From: a phage
Sequence record: PZ151149.1
DNA: 64,000 bases
Reading direction: 5' to 3' (one strand)
In this document: piece by piece, positions 10,069 to 64,000 of the stretch
Position numbering within the stretch: position 1 is the stretch's first letter
Layout: each line of letters opens with the position of its first letter
Made by a program: the position numbers and the translations under genes
Notes under the pieces: model-generated
Databases searched by the model: none
Told to the model about the DNA's origin: nothing
What the model saw: the letters and a program-made list of their open reading frames with translations, nothing else

Positions 10069-10869
10069 TTAACCCTTCTTATATTCGCAAACATATTGAG
10101 TACCATAATCATAGCTAATGCGGCCTTTCTCGATGACCTCAAAGCGGATTTCATCGTTTTCCCCTACCCACATTTTGTACTCGTTGAAGTATCCTGCTAC
10201 ATCCGGTTTGCTCATACCAACAACCATATTTTTATATTGTTTGCTGCGTGTCAGATTTGATTTAAACACTTCGCGCTCATCAACATATACGAAAGAAGAC
10301 AATTCACCTTCGGTCATGGTCATTTTCAGCTTGCCGCCCTTGTTACCATAAGTAGAGTTGCCATACAATGGATCTTTGCGGCTGTCTGTTTCAATACCAT
10401 CAATGATTTTCCATGTAAATTTTGCAATGCACTGATAAGTGATAGATCCAGAGATTTTCTCTTCTTTCTTCTGTTCTTCCACCACTTTTTCTTCCTGTTT
10501 CGGTTGTTCTTCTTCAACCTTCGCAGAAGTCTCTGAATCGCTTTCTGACTCGGTTTCTTCTTTAGGTAATACATTCATCAAGTTTTGGATTTGAGCGTTG
10601 TATACAGCCTCCAGTGGCTGAATCTGCCCGATATTGATCATTGTATCACGAACAGTTTTATTCCAGTTGCGTTGCTCTTGTTTCAGAGACGGATCAATCT
10701 TAACAGCTTGAACATATACTTCATGAAGTTTAGAATCCAGTGCGGAGATAGACTCATTAGCACAAATAAACTTCTCTGATTTGGTAGTGGCTTTAGCGCA
10801 ATCAAAGGACGCAGCGTTAGCACCGAAAGCAGTAGCAGAAAGAACGATAGCAGCGATAATGTTTTTCAT
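10069..10869 (-). CDS. secreted protein with DUF1311 / LprI-like N-terminal domain
   Basis: 266 aa; signal peptide MKNIIAAIVLSATAFGANA; FDCAKA...EKFICAN...LDSKL...VY...QRNW pattern typical of DUF1311; acidic E/K linker; separate C-terminal domain. Confidence 0.7.
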   Translation of the reverse strand: MKNIIAAIVLSATAFGANAASFDCAKATTKSEKFICANESISALDSKLHEVYVQAVKIDPSLKQEQRNWNKTVRDTMINIGQIQPLEAVYNAQIQNLMNVLPKEETESESDSETSAKVEEEQPKQEEKVVEEQKKEEKISGSITYQCIAKFTWKIIDGIETDSRKDPLYGNSTYGNKGGKLKMTMTEGELSSFVYVDEREVFKSNLTRSKQYKNMVVGMSKPDVAGYFNEYKMWVGENDEIRFEVIEKGRISYDYGTQYVCEYKKG

Positions 10870-11172: not shown

Positions 11173-11211
11173 ATGGGAGTATCTTACTACTCCCGTTTCT
11201 TTACGTCAACT
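11173..11211 (-). promoter_or_regulatory. early promoter with stem-loop (PeSL-like cassette)
   Basis: GTTGAC -35, GGGAGTA...TACTCCC hairpin around the -10, then AGGAGAATCAC SD and ATG. Confidence 0.6.
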
Positions 11212-11216
11212 GGTTT

Positions 11217-11717
11217 TTAGAAATTTTTCGCTTCTTCTTCGGTCATCATAACCGCGCATTCGTGCATAACTTTGAAAACCGGATCAATCATGTCGAATGC
11301 TTCGCGAGACAGTTTACGAGAAGCGATTTTGATTGCTTCAACGTCTTCTACTACAGGAACAAAAACAGTTTTCAGTTCATCGAGCACGGCAGCTTCTTTT
11401 TCATTCAGGAAGATTCCAGCGTCGTACAGTGCAACTTCGATAACATTAACTTTAACCATTTTTATTTCCTCCAGTTCGTTTCGGTATGGGAGTATAATAC
11501 TACCGATGACCTTTGGCGTCAACTGCTTTTTATTATTTTCGTGAAAATTTTTCGTTGCCTCTAGGTTCTTTTCGACCTTCATCCATTCCGCGTATTCTTG
11601 CGCGGCTACTTTCGGATTTAGTCCGTCTTCGTACATTGCTTCAAGTAATTCTTCGTCGGTGGGCTTATACCCTAAATAAGCCTCCACCTGATTTTTCCAA
11701 ATTTTATACCAGTTCAT
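11217..11717 (-). CDS. hypothetical protein; may be two genes, with a second start at 11459
   Basis: Single open frame, but a complete PeSL-like promoter and a GGAGGAAATAAAA-ATG start (11459) lie inside it in frame; first ATG at 11717 has a GGTGA SD. Confidence 0.45.
   Translation of the reverse strand: MNWYKIWKNQVEAYLGYKPTDEELLEAMYEDGLNPKVAAQEYAEWMKVEKNLEATKNFHENNKKQLTPKVIGSIILPYRNELEEIKMVKVNVIEVALYDAGIFLNEKEAAVLDELKTVFVPVVEDVEAIKIASRKLSREAFDMIDPVFKVMHECAVMMTEEEAKNF
11480..11523 (-). promoter_or_regulatory. early promoter with stem-loop, embedded in the ORF
   Basis: TTGACG, 17 nt, TATTAT; stem CGGTA/TACCG; followed by strong SD and ATG at 11459. Confidence 0.55.
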
Positions 11718-11721
11718 ATTA

Positions 11722-11994
11722 TCACCAATCAAGAGCGCGTGTCTCTGCGTCTTCCCATGCTTGATTCATAACAGCATTGAAAACATATTCTAAAGTATCA
11801 TCTTTAGAGAATCCGAAGATTTTAGACGGAATATCTTCAATTGCTACTCCCGCAACTTCTGCATTACGTGCTTGGCAATAATGCAACTCTAAGTTATCGA
11901 GATAGCGACCGCCTAATTTCTCCATATCATCCCAGCATTTCCAGTAACCTACTTTATTTGCAATTGCTAACACTTTGCTGTTTTCGTTGCTCAT
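11722..11994 (-). CDS. hypothetical protein
   Basis: 90 aa; AGGAGAATCAAAG SD; PeSL-like cassette upstream. Confidence 0.5.
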   Translation of the reverse strand: MSNENSKVLAIANKVGYWKCWDDMEKLGGRYLDNLELHYCQARNAEVAGVAIEDIPSKIFGFSKDDTLEYVFNAVMNQAWEDAETRALDW

Positions 11995-12014: not shown

Positions 12015-12057
12015 CGGTATGGGAGTATTATGCGGTGCTGGATTATGGAAGTCAACA
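12015..12057 (-). promoter_or_regulatory. early promoter (PeSL-like)
   Basis: GTTGAC, ~18-nt spacer, CATAAT, then ACTCCCATAC and SD; A-tract upstream. Confidence 0.6.
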
Positions 12058-12061
12058 ACTT

Positions 12062-12095
12062 TTTAAAATAAAAAGCCGACCACAAGGATCGGCTT
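12062..12095 (-). terminator. rho-independent terminator
   Basis: Minus strand AAGCCGA-tccttgtgg-TCGGCTT then TTTATTTT; same stem as the plus-strand terminator at 1133. Confidence 0.6.
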
Positions 12096-19126: not shown

Positions 19127-19134
19127 AACTTTTT

Positions 19135-25780: not shown

Positions 25781-25798
25781 TATAAAGTGTATGTGATC

Positions 25799-25806
25799 TA
25801 TAAATA
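25799..25806 (+). promoter_or_regulatory. T4-type late promoter TATAAATA
   Basis: Exact TATAAATA about 30 nt upstream of the endonuclease ATG at 25837. Confidence 0.5.
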
Positions 25807-25836
25807 AGTTTGTCAGAACTAAAAGGAGATCACAAA

Positions 25837-26766
25837 ATGAACTATAAACGTATTTATGATAACCTGATTGAACGTGCTAAGACTAGAACTATCGACGGAT
25901 ATACAGAAAAGCATCACATCATACCACGTTGTATGAATGGAAGCGATGATGATAGCAATCTAGTTAGACTCACCCCAGAGGAACATTACATTGCTCACCT
26001 TCTGTTAGTTAAGATTTACCCAGATAACAGTAAATTGGTTTATGCTGCAAATATGATGTGCGTTTCTTCTGATTCACATAATGGAGAAAGACAGTCAAAT
26101 AAACGTCATGGTTGGTTGCGTAGAAAAATGGCTGAGGCACATAGTAAAAGAATCCGCGATAGAATGGAGAACGATCCTGAATATAGAGCTAAGGTTTCGG
26201 AATGGGCTAGAAAAATGGGTAAAGCCATGAAAGGAGTTAAGCGAGGACCGGAATTTAGCAGAAAGTTGGCAGAAAGAAACAGAAATACCGTGATGAAAGA
26301 AGAAACTAAACGTAAAATCGGGGAAGCCAACAAAGGAAGGAAACGTACAGAAGAATATAAAAGAAAACATAGTGAGCGGTATAAGGGTGAAGGTAATCCG
26401 ATGTATGGTAAACGAGGAAAGGACCATCCGGCATATGGTACTAAACCGTGGAACAACCAAACATCATTTGTTGAGCAGAAAGCATGGTGGCGGTTCGCTG
26501 GCATGTTCTATGACTGGTATCAGATGGATATTGACCGTGGGAAACATAAACGCCACGGTCATAAAAGAATGCTTGATGAATTGGGTTTTGTTGGTTGGCG
26601 AGAAAAAGAGCCAGCCGCAGCAAGACGATCAATTGAAATGTTTGCTAAAGGCTGGAATCCTTATGAAGACCAAGAATGGTTAGATTATATTAATACCCGC
26701 TTTCCAAACGACGATAGTTTTCCGCGTTCTTCAACATATACAAAACAAACAAATCCTTTGCAGTAA
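25837..26766 (+). CDS. free-standing HNH homing endonuclease
   Basis: 309 aa; AAGGAG SD; HNH core KHHIIPRCMNGSDDDSNLVRLTPEEHYIAH; repeated basic GK/RG segments; only plus-strand gene inside the minus-strand array. Confidence 0.8.
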   Translation: MNYKRIYDNLIERAKTRTIDGYTEKHHIIPRCMNGSDDDSNLVRLTPEEHYIAHLLLVKIYPDNSKLVYAANMMCVSSDSHNGERQSNKRHGWLRRKMAEAHSKRIRDRMENDPEYRAKVSEWARKMGKAMKGVKRGPEFSRKLAERNRNTVMKEETKRKIGEANKGRKRTEEYKRKHSERYKGEGNPMYGKRGKDHPAYGTKPWNNQTSFVEQKAWWRFAGMFYDWYQMDIDRGKHKRHGHKRMLDELGFVGWREKEPAAARRSIEMFAKGWNPYEDQEWLDYINTRFPNDDSFPRSSTYTKQTNPLQ

Positions 26767-27214
26767 GACCTAATGCTAGGAATTTACACATAATAAAATG
26801 GAGTTGGTCCACCGCCTCTAGGTATGTTTCTAGACGATCCGCCTCTGGCAAATCACTAAAGAGGCGGTTTCGTGCTTCCATGTGATTTGCTTTCCAGTGT
26901 TTCCATACCGCGCTCGCGTCCTTCCCGTTAGACATTCCACCTAATGAAGTATACAATTCTCGTGTTTCGTCGTCAAGAGCATTATCATTCGCTCGAATAA
27001 AATCTAAAATTTCTCCACACGTTTTCAATTCGTCAATTTTTGCCACCCACGGACGGTCCTTAGACACCTGATCCTGTAACGCTTTTTGCATATTCATCAT
27101 GTGTTGGAACGGGTTATCACCGTTGGCGATGATTTCTTTATATTTTTCTTCTGCAAAATTCAGAGTTTCCGCATTTACTAAGTGTGCACAAGAATTAAAT
27201 TCTGACATATTCAC
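26690..27214 (-). CDS. probable nucleotide pyrophosphatase (gene 56-like, MazG-type)
   Basis: 174 aa (T4 gp56 171); N-terminal EFNSCAHL block resembles remembered gp56 start; position between 61 and mod-like gene fits T4; 3' end overlaps the endonuclease 3' end by 77 nt. Confidence 0.45.
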   Translation of the reverse strand: MNMSEFNSCAHLVNAETLNFAEEKYKEIIANGDNPFQHMMNMQKALQDQVSKDRPWVAKIDELKTCGEILDFIRANDNALDDETRELYTSLGGMSNGKDASAVWKHWKANHMEARNRLFSDLPEADRLETYLEAVDQLHFIMCKFLALGLTAKDLFVLYMLKNAENYRRLESGY

Positions 27215-32992: not shown

Positions 32993-34469
32993 TTAAATGT
33001 CAAACAGGTCTGTAAGAGATGCCACTTTTTCATATTGCAGCTTTGCAGCCGTGGTAATGTTCTCCAGTGGTTTGACGAAAGTCTTATTAAACAACAAAGG
33101 CCAGTCTAACCACTTTAACACCTCTGATTCAATTTCTGGTGGAATACGAGTACCAGACAACCAGCCAAAACAGATTTCTCCAAACGGATTTCGATCTTTC
33201 AGCGGTACGATCATAACTTTCTCGCCTTCGCGGATCGGATCTAGTCCATATTTGCGAGCATTGCGATTATAGCACAATACACTCTTAACCGCATACGGAC
33301 AACCCTTAATCGGATACCCGTTTGAATCGCTGTATTTCTGTAGGTTGTTTGCAGATGACACCGCAGCAACCTCAAGATAGTCAAGTTTTCTAAATTCTTG
33401 CTCAAAAATACCGTAGTATTCCTGCAATGACTCTTCACCTTCCTGCAACATACGACGAATACATTCTTTCAGTGATTTCTGACATGCTTTAGGGGTGGAG
33501 CTACGTTGCGTTTCCAAGCCCATGATTTTTAGCTTAGGTTCAGCAAAGCGCGTTCCTTCCATATCCCAAACATTAAGAGCATAACGCTTTTTACCAGTCC
33601 AGAATCCACCGATACCCGCAGATTTCAACGGAGGACCAGCAATTGCCTCGCGGTCCATAAACATCAAGTGCTCATAATTGTTCATGTACTCGCATAACTC
33701 GCGATATCCTTTGTCGATAATCGGTTCCATTCTATGTTTACCGAAATTATCAAGGAAGTCAACAAGTTTTTCGGTATCGTCGAAACGATCTTCCCCGCCA
33801 ACCTTATCAACAACATTGTTAACCAGCACATAAACGGAGTCAGTATCACAATAACGAACATATGCAAAATCGGTTGTTCCGCAAAGCTCGTTTAAGTATT
33901 CGTTAATCTTACGCTCAATCCACTGAATTGCAAGCTGACCGAACAAGGTGATCGCACTAGCGTTACGGAGATCATAAAAACGGAATTTAGGATTCCCCAA
34001 CGCACCATAAAGGGAGTTGATCAAAACTTTTCGAGAAAGCTGGTTTGTATTGCACAAGATCGACTCGTCTTTACATTCTTCCAGCAATTTCTCTAAGGCA
34101 TCTTTGCTTAATTCCGAAAGCATCGATTTAAACGCTTCATCGAAGTCATGACGCACTTCAACGCTATAGCTAATGGTTCCCCCATAAACATGATTTTCAT
34201 CGTGTAGAATCGCTTTACATAGTTCAGCATTGCGATCACATGCCAACATCATGTTTTTGTACTGCTTACGCTGATCGAATACCTTTTTAATCTCAATCGG
34301 TACGATACCATGAATATCTTTTCTATACATCCATCCGTTAGGCGAGCAAGAATACTCATCACTCGGACGTGGTGCAGTTTTATTGATATACTCGTGCATC
34401 GGTGCAGCATCAAAAGATCCAGCGATTGTTTCCGGCGAAATGTTAACCTGACGGATGATTGATGGATAC
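32993..34469 (-). CDS. 43: DNA polymerase gp43, exon 2 (C-terminal part)
   Basis: Homology to T4 gp43 runs upstream of the track ATG through YPSIIRQVNISPET to the proposed 3' splice site at 34469/34470; C-terminal clamp-binding tail SLTDLFDI. Confidence 0.8.
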
Positions 34470-35583
34470 CATTATGTTCAGCGCGGTTCGCTACTCCCGC
34501 GCCCGTTCTCTTGCGAACTGCTACATGTCACCATGTAGATCAGACTATATCACATTCTCATAGAGAATCCTGCCATTTCGAATCGCTTGATTCTACTCTA
34601 CTCGGTTCGTTACCCTTTCGATAGTCGTTGAACAACTGCATCTTTAAGCTCATTTTGATCAAACGGTGTTCTCTTACAGTATCCGCTATAATTCTTAGCA
34701 AAAGGTTTCTTCTTACCAAAAATCTCTTTTCCTGAATTGTGTGCTTCAACAAGAAAATTCACCATTTCATCAAATGTGAAACTTGCAAATTTAGCATAAG
34801 TTTCATTACGTTTTGACATTATTTTACTCATAACTTCCGGTCGTTTAGACGCTGAATTTTCGCGTTTCTCGCCAGTATTAAATGATACCAACTCACCGGA
34901 AACATATCTAGGATCATCACAACTAACTCTAAACCGATTTCCTTCCTTATCCTTAACGATAACAGTATTCTTTAGCTTTTCTGCCATAGAATCAAGACCT
35001 TTTCGTATAGTGTCCTCATCAGCCCCGAAATATTTCTTTCCGCTCATATCGGTTCTGGCTTTTCCGGTCTTGTTTTCGGATATTTTCAGTCTAACTTCCT
35101 CTCGCTTGGCTGGGTTATTGTCTCCAGCGAATGCATCTTTGGTTAACGCCTTCACTTTATCGTCATAAGATCCTCTAGAGATGAAAGCATATGCTCTCTT
35201 GCATTCACCGTTATTGAATATTAAGCACAATAACCGATGCGCCTCGACGTGGTCTTCAAACTTAAGCCTAACAAGATTCCATTTATCTAACCGATATTCA
35301 GGGAACATTGACTTCGGGCATATATGATGCACCTCGGAATATTCTTCACCCTGATACGGATTAGACACCAGTTTAATGTAGTCGTTTAATGCTTCCTCGT
35401 TATGTATTTCGTACTTTCTTAAAATGTCTTTCATCTCGCGCCTCCAATGTATATCAATATCTATATACATTATAAGACACGTTAGCTCAAAATGCAACTG
35501 CTGCTGATTGTCTCCTTAGAGATTTCCCAGCAATTAAGCAGGTTATTCGATCACTGTCACCAGTGAAAGCCCCATATCAGTTT
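34470..35583 (-). mobile_element. probable group I intron in gene 43 carrying an HNH endonuclease ORF
   Basis: 1114 nt between residues that are contiguous in T4 gp43 (LTSL|YPS, polymerase motif A); stop codons in the gp43 frame; 5' exon ends in U, insert ends in G; GGGG 10 nt into the insert can pair with exon CCCU (P1-like). Confidence 0.6.
34610..35434 (-). CDS. intron-encoded HNH homing endonuclease
   Basis: 274 aa from the ATG at 35434 (GGAGG SD); HNH core EVHHICPKS...WNLVRL...EDHVEAHRLL; GDNNPAKR motif. Confidence 0.75.
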   Translation of the reverse strand: MKDILRKYEIHNEEALNDYIKLVSNPYQGEEYSEVHHICPKSMFPEYRLDKWNLVRLKFEDHVEAHRLLCLIFNNGECKRAYAFISRGSYDDKVKALTKDAFAGDNNPAKREEVRLKISENKTGKARTDMSGKKYFGADEDTIRKGLDSMAEKLKNTVIVKDKEGNRFRVSCDDPRYVSGELVSFNTGEKRENSASKRPEVMSKIMSKRNETYAKFASFTFDEMVNFLVEAHNSGKEIFGKKKPFAKNYSGYCKRTPFDQNELKDAVVQRLSKG

Positions 35584-36785
35584 AGGGAAGTAAGGTCAAA
35601 GCTCATCATCCAACGGTAAGCATTCGGCACAGGTTCTTTTACAAATGCGCCTGGATACGTCTGCTTAGGCTGTATCTTATTTTCCGGTACTACTTTACCC
35701 TCTGCTTTCAGAGATCCGAAGATAATAGCATCCCATACTTTCATCGGATTATAAACATGGTTAAATTTAATCTTTGCATAGAAACATAGGCTATACACCA
35801 GATCAATAAAACCACGCTTTTTATCAATCGCCAGCACACGGTCAACGTCGCCGATGTTATAATCGATGTAAAGTTGATGGTTGTCATCACGCAATTTCTT
35901 TAATGGACCATCATAATCAACCTTACCGATTCCTGTCTCATATTCAGCAACATAATCTAATGCATATGTTGGTTGAGTCGTAAAGCTAAATTTCTTGTAC
36001 AGGTCAATATAATCAAGGCTTTCGATCCCCATGATCGTAAATGCTTCACGCTCATTGCCAAAATCATCCTGTGAGATTCGGGATTTAATCTTACCGCACG
36101 GGCTTAATCGGTTTGCCGTTCGACTTCCAAACTTATTACTGATACGCTTAATGATATACGGGATATCGAATGTTTCTGTGTTCCAGCCAGTGAAGCCAAC
36201 TGGTCGGTTTTCCTCAAAGAATCGGATGTATTCTAATAGCAATTCATCTTCTGTATCATAGACGTTATAAACAACGCGCTCTACAATATCAGGTCGAAGA
36301 ATAGATTTGTTTGCTTCCCAGATTTCACCGTTTTTTCCTTTCAAATCAAATACAAAGAAACGATCATGTACGGAATCATAATGCGTAATTGCATCGATAG
36401 GATATTTCGCCTCTTCTGGTTTAGGAAATTCCGGTGCGGTGACCTCAATATCAACCCACGCTACACGGATTTTATTTCGGTCATATCGAATCTCACCTTT
36501 ATATGCATCAGACAGATAGGAGATGATAAAATCATCCATACCTAGTGCCTCTTGCCCCATTTCCCCCATCCTTTTACGCCATTTGTTGGCCTCGTTCATA
36601 GATGGGAATTTTTTAGCAATGCAAGGCTTGCCATAGATATCTTTATAATTTGTAACCATACCAGGCGCGGCATGATGAAATAATGTTGGCGTATATTCAA
36701 CGTAACGCTCTTGTTCTTGTCCAGCATCATCAATATAACGCTCGTAGATCTTATCACCTACTCGCTCACATGACAGAAAATACAT
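35584..36785 (-). CDS. 43: DNA polymerase gp43, exon 1 (N-terminal exonuclease and start of polymerase domain)
   Basis: Start at ATG 36785 (AAGGAG SD; track start was GTG 36815); MYFLSCERVGDKIYERYIDD aligns with the T4 gp43 N-terminus; ends in motif A ...FDLTSL. Confidence 0.8.
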
Positions 36786-50914: not shown

Positions 50915-51050
50915 TTACCCCGAACTCGTTTACAATCTGCGCTTTATAGTAACCGCCGCGAGATGCTAATAGATAAGCTGGGCTTAGGTATTCGTATTCA
51001 CGGATTTCTACTTGTGCGTTTTCAGTTTCCCAAATCAGTAAAGTCCACAT
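50898..51050 (-). CDS. hypothetical small protein
   Basis: 50 aa from the ATG at 51050 (AGGAGAATCAAAT SD); the track start lies inside the promoter cassette. Confidence 0.4.
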   Translation of the reverse strand: MWTLLIWETENAQVEIREYEYLSPAYLLASRGGYYKAQIVNEFGVIEYEF

Positions 51051-51089
51051 ATTTGATTCTCCTGTAAAGTTGTATCTCGTCTTGATGAA

Positions 51090-51122
51090 TATAGTATAGG
51101 GGATCTCGCGATCCCCGTCAAG
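51090..51122 (-). promoter_or_regulatory. early promoter with stem-loop (PeSL-like)
   Basis: TTGACG, hairpin GGGGATC-gcga-GATCCCC in the spacer, TATACT. Confidence 0.55.
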
Positions 51123-51125
51123 CAT

Positions 51126-51674
51126 TTATTTTAAATTTTTTCGAATGTATTCAGACCATTCCTTCCCCGTCATTTCGGACCCATTCTGGAAACTGAAATA
51201 TTCATACGGCATCGAGTCAAGATAAAACAGGATCATACATCGCGCCATATAATACCAATCACGATTAAAGTAAACTACGTTATCACCAGTACCATCAACC
51301 CCTTTATCATAACCATCGCGGGTACGGGCTACCCATTGAATAGTATCATTTTTCTCACGGATAGTAACAGGTTCCCAATATCCAGCACATCCAGCATGAC
51401 CACACGAACAAGTAAGGAAGTATTGGCCTTTTGCTTTGTTGTCATCCCATTCACGATGGATTGGTTTGATCTCGTGAAACAGTGCCAAGCAATCATGATT
51501 ATGCAACACTGGCTTACCATCAATCAATGCATGGAATGTATACAAACGACCAGTAGACAAATAGCTATCCTCACGCTCACAGAGTTCAATAGCAATCTTT
51601 TTAGCTTGTTCTTTGTGCCGTTGTGCTTTACGCTTACGGTTTAATGATTTCATATTCACCTCACACATTATCAA
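51126..51674 (-). CDS. hypothetical Cys/His-rich protein
   Basis: 182 aa; CSCGHAGCAGYW segment. Confidence 0.5.
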   Translation of the reverse strand: MIMCEVNMKSLNRKRKAQRHKEQAKKIAIELCEREDSYLSTGRLYTFHALIDGKPVLHNHDCLALFHEIKPIHREWDDNKAKGQYFLTCSCGHAGCAGYWEPVTIREKNDTIQWVARTRDGYDKGVDGTGDNVVYFNRDWYYMARCMILFYLDSMPYEYFSFQNGSEMTGKEWSEYIRKNLK

Positions 51675-63214: not shown

Positions 63215-63561
63215 GCCAGACCTCGCAAAACACTAATAGCATAATCATGCTGGTTATTCATAATATCAATTGCGTTGTGATAGCGAGCTAAACCATCAAG
63301 GATAAATTCTTGTTTATCCTGTTTCAGTTTGGTATCACGCGCAGCCATAAGAGCATCAAGAACAGGTCCAAAGTGATTATCTAATTCATCTTCGGTTGCA
63401 ATGTTTCCTATTGCCTCGTCGATCCGTGATTCTAATGCTTGCTTTTCGTTGATCACTTGCTGGGTATATTCCAACACATCAAGAATATCGCGGGTAACGT
63501 CGCCATGATAAGGTATTCCCGCGTGAATATGATCAATTAATCGCTGAATATCAATGTTCAA
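63211..63561 (-). CDS. hypothetical protein
   Basis: 116 aa; TTG start with GAGGG SD. Confidence 0.45.
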   Translation of the reverse strand: MNIDIQRLIDHIHAGIPYHGDVTRDILDVLEYTQQVINEKQALESRIDEAIGNIATEDELDNHFGPVLDALMAARDTKLKQDKQEFILDGLARYHNAIDIMNNQHDYAISVLRGLA

Positions 63562-63880
63562 TTGTAACCCTCCTCTGAAAGTACATCCCAGATCGTTGCG
63601 TCAAGGTGCATTAAATTCCACATAATAGAGTCATAACTACCGAAGCCAGAAGTAAAAATTACATCACACTGACGATAGGTCTTATGAAAATCGGTAGCTG
63701 TCTCTGCATCAATCGGCATATCGTCACCTGAAAGCACCAGACAGAATCATAACCCTGTTAGCCGTTGGCGCTTGCTTAGTCTTTTCAGCATATTTTTCGA
63801 TGATCCGTTTTGCCTTTTCTTCTTTGATACGTCCAGACCAAATCCGGTTTCGGTATTGATTCATAATAATTTCAATCACA

Positions 63881-64000
63881 TCATTTTGCATTCTTCACGG
63901 TCTCCATAATTGTTTTGTAAGCCAGTTTAAGATGATCACCGAAAAACTTTGCGGTGTTACCCTTCGGATCGCGGAGCATGGTTTCTACGATCTCATCGGC
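63881..64000 (-). CDS. 3' end of a gene that starts beyond the window
   Basis: Minus-strand frame open from nt 64000 down to TGA at 63881; C-terminus ...KTIMETVKNAK. Confidence 0.4.
   Translation of the reverse strand, partial: ADEIVETMLRDPKGNTAKFFGDHLKLAYKTIMETVKNAK

Follow-up and report, generated by a model that had tools for sequence, protein, structure and literature searches.

Promoter-early stem-loops (PeSLs) were described in phages RB49 and Phi1 (Arbiol et al., 2010, PMC2839356; Comeau et al., 2014, PMC4122927). Each extends from the stop codon of an upstream gene through an AT-rich tract, sigma-70-like promoter boxes and a stem-loop to the Shine-Dalgarno sequence and ATG of the next gene. 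PeSLs cluster in hyperplastic regions beside ORFans, and their modular shuffling has been described (Arbiol et al., 2010, PMC2839356). In the early promoters of RB49, an A-rich tract resembling an UP element lies at -40 to -44, and positions -3 to -1 are occupied by C residues (Nolan et al., 2006, PMC1524935). In Aeromonas phages, PeSL-like sequences are found between 43A and 43B, the parts of a split DNA polymerase gene 43 (cited in Arbiol et al., 2010, PMC2839356).

The present analysis concerns a PeSL-type cassette that lies within a continuous open reading frame in a phage sequence of 64,000 nucleotides, which is referred to below as the window. Two other known arrangements are relevant to such a locus. 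Gene 49 of phage T4 gives rise to long and short forms of endonuclease VII, which are nested in-frame products of internal promoters or starts, and programmed -1 frameshifting of the dnaX type takes place at the site A-AAA-AAG. A search with the 1.2-kb locus matched 59 phage records, all of them Krischvirus (RB49, GEC-3S, JSE group), at 90-98% identity. On sequence grounds the source of the window is an RB49-like coliphage, Krischvirus (RB49 group).

The continuous open reading frame

The minus-strand frame from 11217 to 11732 is open throughout in the ORF listing and encodes 171 amino acids from a TTG. Taken from the ATG at 11717, which is the start annotated in relatives, it has 166 codons and a stop (11717..11217, minus strand; ORF listing and tblastn). 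An earlier note on this DNA had described the open frame, an ATG start at 11459, and lengths of 80 and about 166 amino acids for the possible products. These coordinates and lengths were confirmed, the ATG at 11459 being codon 87 of the 166. In the closest relative, 011D4, the frame has two separate counterparts, of 72 and 80 amino acids (tblastn and ORF comparison).

Three parts can be recognized: a remnant of two genes, A and B, in codons 1-64 (A-B'), a promoter-encoded linker in codons 65-86, and gene C in codons 87-166. The gene A part covers codons 1-53 (11559..11717, minus strand), and its residues 1-49 match the 55-amino acid family phrog_8655; gene A stands alone, with 53-56 amino acids, in JSE, Sf20 and GEC-3S. 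Codons 54-64 (11526..11558, minus strand) encode ATKNFHENNKK, the C-terminus of the gene B product; gene B is present in full in GEC-3S, W115 and others. Gene B of GEC-3S encodes 66 amino acids with an N-terminus that is signal-peptide- or lipoprotein-like by eye, and the depositors of W115 named its product a putative membrane protein. In E26, 011D4, PHB13, phiS and the window, an in-frame deletion of about 174 bp fuses gene A to the 3'-terminal 11 codons of gene B, and all five have A-B' upstream of the cassette. The upstream gene is thus what a deletion has left of two genes. Among relatives the C-terminus of gene A varies, which have 53, 56, 64 or 72 amino acids, and since it was already free to vary, further extension may be tolerated.

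Near the end of A-B', the codons AAA AAG contain a run of five A residues (A5; 11527..11531, minus strand), where the nearest relatives have six (A6); relative to 011D4 this is an isolated 1-nt deletion. The linker that follows consists of 22 promoter-encoded codons, QLTPKVIGSIILPYRNELEEIK. Gene C (11217..11459, minus strand) is an 80-amino acid ORFan with no Pfam or PHROG match. It is conserved and evolves like coding sequence, its variable sites being distributed 7/2/17 over the three codon positions in 24 sequences.

A Pfam search with both halves of the fusion found no family, and a PHROGs search of the fusion matched the N-terminal 49 residues and nothing else. No homologue of the fusion protein was found at E <= 1e-3, nor was the exact 166-amino acid protein on record. 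AlphaFold2, run on the single fusion sequence, gave a poor pLDDT of 62.6, with the lowest confidence at residues 82-89, too weak a model to bear on function. On the plus strand the locus has only antisense ORFs, which are without support.

In the record of PTE-Eco09, gene C is frameshifted (48 amino acids) and annotated as two CDSs, which suggests either that gene C can be dispensed with or that there is an error in the record.

Promoter, stem-loop and translation signals

A promoter scan revealed a sigma-70-type early promoter on the minus strand at 11494..11522, TTGACG-17 nt-TATTAT, which agrees with the consensus at 10 of 12 positions; the full PeSL-like promoter that the earlier note had placed inside the frame was thereby found. 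The -35 box TTGACG (11522..11517) and the -10 box TATTAT (11499..11494) match the sigma-70-like boxes of a PeSL in sequence, and in the window the promoter corresponds to residues L66-I75 of the long frame. The same promoter is annotated in the record of GEC-3S, and the 63-nt segment spanning TTGAC to the ATG has the same sequence in the window and 16 relatives. The AT-rich tract of a PeSL is represented by AATAATAAAAAG at 11537..11526, in agreement with the A-rich tract at -40 to -44 of RB49 early promoters (Nolan et al., 2006, PMC1524935). We infer that the A-run at 11531..11527, which would lie at about -44 to -40 of the start site, is the UP-like tract of this promoter. At the 3' edge, the Shine-Dalgarno sequence GGAGG (11472..11468, minus strand) is followed after 8 nt by the ATG of the ORFan, gene C (11459..11457, minus strand), in phase with the long frame, and the gene content of this hyperplastic region varies among relatives. 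Taken together, the match to the promoter consensus, the definition of a PeSL (Arbiol et al., 2010, PMC2839356) and the annotation in GEC-3S indicate that the cassette in the 166-codon ORF is a PeSL, a regulatory cassette already known from RB49-group phages.

The stop codon at the 5' edge of a PeSL is missing in the window, which has CAG, the codon of Gln65 (11523..11525, minus strand), directly before TTGAC; 12 relatives have a TAG stop there. A second TAG, in the spacer between the promoter boxes (11500..11502, minus strand), is the stop of the upstream gene in 14 relatives. In the window this second TAG is not in frame with the upstream gene; frame 2 through the cassette reads KAVDAKGHR*.

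In the fold test, a degenerate PeSL stem-loop with one mismatch, GGTAGTA-tta-TACTCCC, was located at 11488..11504 (minus strand); it does not form in the minimum-energy structure (z = -0.86). The neighbouring cassettes, with z = -1.9 and -2.2, have a perfect 7-bp hairpin, GGGAGTA/TACTCCC. The stable stem-loop of a PeSL is thus lacking from the cassette in the fused ORF, which looks like a decayed PeSL.

A strict-pattern scan of the whole window yielded 18 tandem PeSL-type units, all 18 on the minus strand, in the order stop, A-rich tract, TTGAC, 17 nt, -10 box, ACTCCCAT, Shine-Dalgarno and ATG. The pattern TTGAC...ACTCCCATACC is common to three units inside 900 bp. Four of the 18 cassettes, read in the frame of the downstream gene, are free of stops between the -35 box and the ATG, so an open cassette alone is not rare. 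Read-through by a real upstream gene was seen in one of the 18, at the fused locus only.

Elsewhere in the window, the cassette at 51050..51128 (minus strand) is stop-free except for the TAA (51126..51128) of a 182-amino acid gene, which is in frame with a downstream gene of 50 amino acids; one substitution would fuse the two. At the end of the PeSL array there is a 266-amino acid gene (10069..10869, minus strand) with a weak match to Pfam LprI (lysozyme inhibitor, DUF1311 type) at residues 24-76 (25.6 bits; cut-off 22) and an N-terminus that resembles a signal peptide by eye.

The junction in related phages

The locus was taken from 26 phage records, of which 24 have gene C, and from two metagenome contigs, and the junctions were classified by script. 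The 24 phage records and the two contigs constitute 26 gene C relatives, or 27 sequences with the window. Searches of a viral contig collection for related loci and for the exact cassette found nothing, as did a genome contig scan; the comparison is based on the annotated phage collection and the two metagenome contigs.

RB49, Phi1, JSE and Sf20 are without genes B and C (in RB49 and Phi1, gene C was sought by tblastn) and have one PeSL between gene A and a further gene, D. The layout in JSE and Sf20 is gene A (53 amino acids), TAG, PeSL, gene D. The GEC-3S-type layout is gene A (56 amino acids), gene B (66 amino acids), PeSL, gene C (80 amino acids), PeSL, gene D.

Just 5' of TTGAC the gene C relatives vary in the A-run, which has five or six residues, and in the four bases that follow it, which are CTAG, TTAG, GCAG or GAAG. 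In 12 of the 26, a TAG at -3 abuts TTGAC and the upstream gene ends there. Nine of these have A5 with CTAG or TTAG; the other three, kaaroe, FL15 and FL37, have A6 with CTAG, compensated by an upstream change from T5 to T4. In sequences of this class one TAG is the sole separator of the upstream gene and gene C. A single tblastn piece from E26 spans the 166-codon frame, with one TAG at the position of Gln65 of the window. Fourteen of the 26 relatives have A6 and a TAG at +20; their upstream gene crosses the -35 box for 8 codons and ends in the spacer (cggTAGtattat). The combination of A5 with GCAG, which leaves no stop, is found in the window only (1/27 sequences), and the fused state in none of the 26 relatives. 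These three junction states are explained by the three frames of the cassette, of which one meets a TGA inside TTGAC, one meets the spacer TAG, and the third is wholly open and in phase with the ATG of gene C.

The earlier note was correct in stating that other copies carry stops in the frame of the upstream gene (26 of 26 relatives). It further suggested that a cassette may recently have been inserted and have fused two genes. Modules consisting of a PeSL and an ORFan do move, as seen in the absence of genes B and C from RB49, Phi1, JSE and Sf20, which fits the shuffling described earlier (Arbiol et al., 2010, PMC2839356). In the alignment with related phages that the note had suggested, however, the cassette was present in all 26 carriers of the module, in the same place, with near-identical sequence, with gene C beside it and with a stop retained, and none was fused. 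Moreover, the difference in the window lies outside the block between the -35 box and the ATG; the fusion is due to point changes on the 5' side of this block, and only a single A separates the window from its nearest relatives, 011D4, PHB13 and phiS. A recent insertion as the cause of the fusion is thus contradicted by the comparison and extremely improbable. On a deeper time scale the cassette and gene C are a presence/absence unit, but that older event did not create the fusion.

The 417-nt CDSs of Delraymugoa and SSG23 were considered as instances of the same fusion and rejected, since they cover gene B in the wrong frame before they enter the frame of gene C. The deposited CDSs (Delraymugoa L008, 942..1358; SSG23 L017, 1216..1632) encode 138 amino acids, and annotation of the true genes B and C is incomplete in these records. 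Such CDSs are possible only because the TAG before the -35 box has been lost there. In MIZ6, FL15, LF73P4 and FL38, another A-run, between the Shine-Dalgarno sequence and the ATG of the gene C cassette, varies between A4 and A5.

Origin of the fused frame

Comparison of the junctions shows the ancestral layout: upstream gene, TAG, PeSL, and the 80-amino acid gene C. It likewise shows one sublineage in which CTAG before TTGAC became GCAG, with loss of the TAG. In GCAG genomes with A6, the frame of the upstream gene terminates at the spacer TAG. The window carries the diagnostic bases of 011D4, PHB13 and phiS, namely GAGGCAACG, AATAAT and GCAG, together with the same cassette, and its alignment with 011D4 over the 146 nt of the junction has one gap, a missing A. 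The fusion can be ascribed to two changes, both 5' of the -35 box: the change of TAG to CAG and an A-run of five instead of six. With A5 and without the TAG, the upstream gene enters the sole stop-free frame of the cassette, which is the frame of gene C, and the 166-codon ORF results.

In a parsimonious history, CTAG with A5 would have come first. A change to A6 would have shifted the stop to the spacer TAG and left the old TAG out of frame; the old TAG would then have decayed to CAG; and finally the lineage of the window would have dropped one A, giving the fusion. All of the intermediate states are found among sequenced phages. It is thus probable that the locus has an ordinary PeSL early-promoter cassette, now read through by the upstream gene, rather than an inserted element.

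The position of the change in an A-run also raises the question of a regulated switch, in which slippage at the run, by DNA phase variation, transcriptional slippage or -1 frameshifting on AAA AAG, would set the ratio of separate to fused products. The length of the run has changed repeatedly: A5 and A6 both occur on CTAG and on GCAG backgrounds, and three phages have the compensated variant. In addition, a -1 shift on AAA-AAG in the window would lead to the spacer TAG and restore the 72-amino acid product. However, the run is merely 5-6 nt long, and the heptamer is U-AAA-AAG, not A-AAA-AAG. No stable structure is predicted downstream of the run (z = -0.86), no Shine-Dalgarno-like stimulator is seen upstream by eye, and the fused state is conserved in 0/26 relatives. 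Programmed -1 frameshifting calls for an X-XXY-YYZ heptamer and a structure; the window has U-AAA-AAG and a fold no better than shuffled sequence. Such a switch is very unlikely. We regard as unlikely, too, an extended form of the read-through explanation in which the PeSL has turned protein linker, A5 is real, the fusion is made, and the UP-like A-run is a slippage hot spot that shifts the upstream gene among three termination states. Most likely, the A5 allele is a neutral or slightly deleterious singleton of a hyperplastic region rather than a dual-product design favoured by selection.

Validity of the A5 allele

Read-through of the PeSL in the window depends on the A5 allele, which we consider, with moderate confidence, to be real. 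The competing explanation is a sequencing or assembly error, the true sequence having A6 as in 011D4, PHB13 and phiS, with an upstream gene of 72 amino acids and no fusion. The sole difference from 011D4 at the junction is one base in a homopolymer, a classic site of sequencing error, and the A5-GCAG allele is unique among the 27 sequences (0/26 relatives). An error at this position is possible, though we think it rather unlikely, in view of the rest of the alignment and of other deposits.

The window was aligned with 011D4 over about 58 kb using megablast costs and an isolated-indel filter. Eight isolated 1-nt indels were found, six of them in runs of 4 or more, and no homopolymer frameshift occurs in any long gene. 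Five of the six homopolymer indels are non-coding, although 88% of A/T runs of at least 5 lie in coding DNA (for random errors, binomial P = 1.5e-4), a pattern that is expected of real variants filtered by selection. Another of the six, at 19130, is also in an A-run 5' of a -35 box. Apart from the fused locus, one ORF of the window is broken relative to 011D4, and the cause there is a 5-nt deletion, not a homopolymer slip. Finally, length variants of the same A-run are common to many separately deposited isolates: A6 is present in 17 separately deposited records, and the pair T4 and A6 in kaaroe, FL15 and FL37. Variants at this site therefore look heritable. If A5 is a read error, nothing is left but a normal PeSL.

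Expected expression of the locus

The internal promoter would still fire at the DNA level, with a start near A11487 as judged from the -40 to -44 tract and the C residues at -3 to -1 (Nolan et al., 2006, PMC1524935). The 80-amino acid protein of gene C would thus still be made from its own early promoter, as in relatives. Farther upstream, the promoter scan found another PeSL-type promoter, TTGACT-17 nt-CATAAT (12027..12055, minus strand), which is preceded by an intrinsic terminator (12095..12073) and is the likely source of transcripts with the 166-codon ORF. The first gene on this upstream transcript is a 90-amino acid gene (phrog_7287; 11722..11994, minus strand), the TGA of which lies 4 nt before the ATG at 11717. 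On the minus strand from 12027 to 11217 no terminator is predicted, and an Rfam search of the whole window at gathering thresholds gave no match. Since there is no predicted terminator before the cassette and the hairpin is decayed, upstream transcripts should cross the cassette. Ribosomes translating A-B' would then run on through the 22 codons of the linker into gene C to give the 166-amino acid fusion.

Both an 80-amino acid product and a 166-amino acid fusion are plausible. The locus has the anatomy of a nested gene, that is, a continuous ORF with an in-frame internal start, its own ribosome-binding site and its own promoter; the fused state itself is conserved in none of the 26 relatives. 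The proposal in the earlier note that gene C can be made alone or as part of the fusion is borne out as far as anatomy goes, by the intact promoter, Shine-Dalgarno sequence and ATG and the lack of a predicted terminator.

Between many neighbouring ORFans of these phages there is only one stop and a promoter that happens to lack stops in the frame of the downstream gene. Two such genes can therefore be fused by a single base change, and the downstream gene is still expressed on its own. Changes of this kind offer hyperplastic regions a way to new composite proteins at little risk. If A5 is real and the fusion is made, PeSL shuffling could build multi-domain proteins in addition to reordering genes. 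For annotation, gene callers will give a protein of 166 amino acids, and the secure unit is the 80-amino acid gene with its own promoter.

Other features of the window

Several features elsewhere in the window were observed in the course of this work. The DNA polymerase gene 43 (32993..36785, minus strand) is interrupted at 34470..35598, precisely between the Leu and Tyr codons of the conserved motif SFDLTSL/YPSIIRQV, by an insert of about 1.13 kb that is absent from 011D4. An HNH-like motif is present in a 295-amino acid ORF (34610..35497) of the insert. The last base of the upstream exon can be U and that of the insert is G, and Rfam Intron_gpI matches 34521..34781 with 33.9 bits, which is below the gathering score of 50. 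We take the insert to be a probable group I intron carrying a homing endonuclease gene.

The region 25783..27185 is longer than the corresponding stretch of 011D4 and cannot be aligned to it. It has a plus-strand ORF of 318 amino acids (25810..26766) with an HNH-like motif (HHIIPRCMNGSDDDSNLVRLTPEEHY) amid minus-strand early genes, and is likely to be the insertion of a free-standing homing endonuclease. At 63558..63891 (minus strand), the 112-amino acid ORF of 011D4 is represented by two ORFs, of 55 and 53 amino acids, through a 5-nt deletion (TTAAA).

Comparison with known systems

The window resembles a dnaX-type site in the tandem lysine codons AAA-AAG at the point where its frames diverge. 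It differs in its imperfect heptamer, U-AAA-AAG, in the lack of predicted stimulatory elements, and in that the arrangement is not conserved. The split of gene 43 is similar in that a PeSL-type sequence lies at the boundary of segments that form one polypeptide or two, depending on the phage. In that case, however, one essential gene is split and the homology of the halves is established, whereas the window joins two unrelated accessory ORFans. As in gene 49 of T4, transcription that starts within the longer ORF could yield a shorter protein by way of an internal in-frame start. Arrangements of the gene 49 type are conserved and functional, while the window is a singleton that joins two unrelated ORFans in a fused state that is not conserved.

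The PeSLs of RB49 and Phi1 are closest. The phage group is the same, as are the sigma-70-like -35 and -10 boxes, the 17-nt spacing and the A-rich tract 5' of the -35 box. At the 3' end there is a Shine-Dalgarno sequence and the ATG of an ORFan; the location is hyperplastic; and the module is present in some relatives and absent from others. The core TACTCCCATACC is common to the cassette at the fused locus and the neighbouring cassettes at 11209 and 12055. In contrast to the canonical unit, which starts with the upstream stop in the AT-rich tract, the window is without that stop, and its stem-loop is degenerate. Furthermore, 14/26 relatives already have an upstream gene that extends over the -35 box and terminates in the spacer. 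In the two papers on PeSLs (PMC2839356 and PMC4122927), the terms "fusion" and "in frame" were absent in the relevant sense by word search. The exact fused state is new, and the mechanism is an ordinary one, a known PeSL without its 5' boundary stop.
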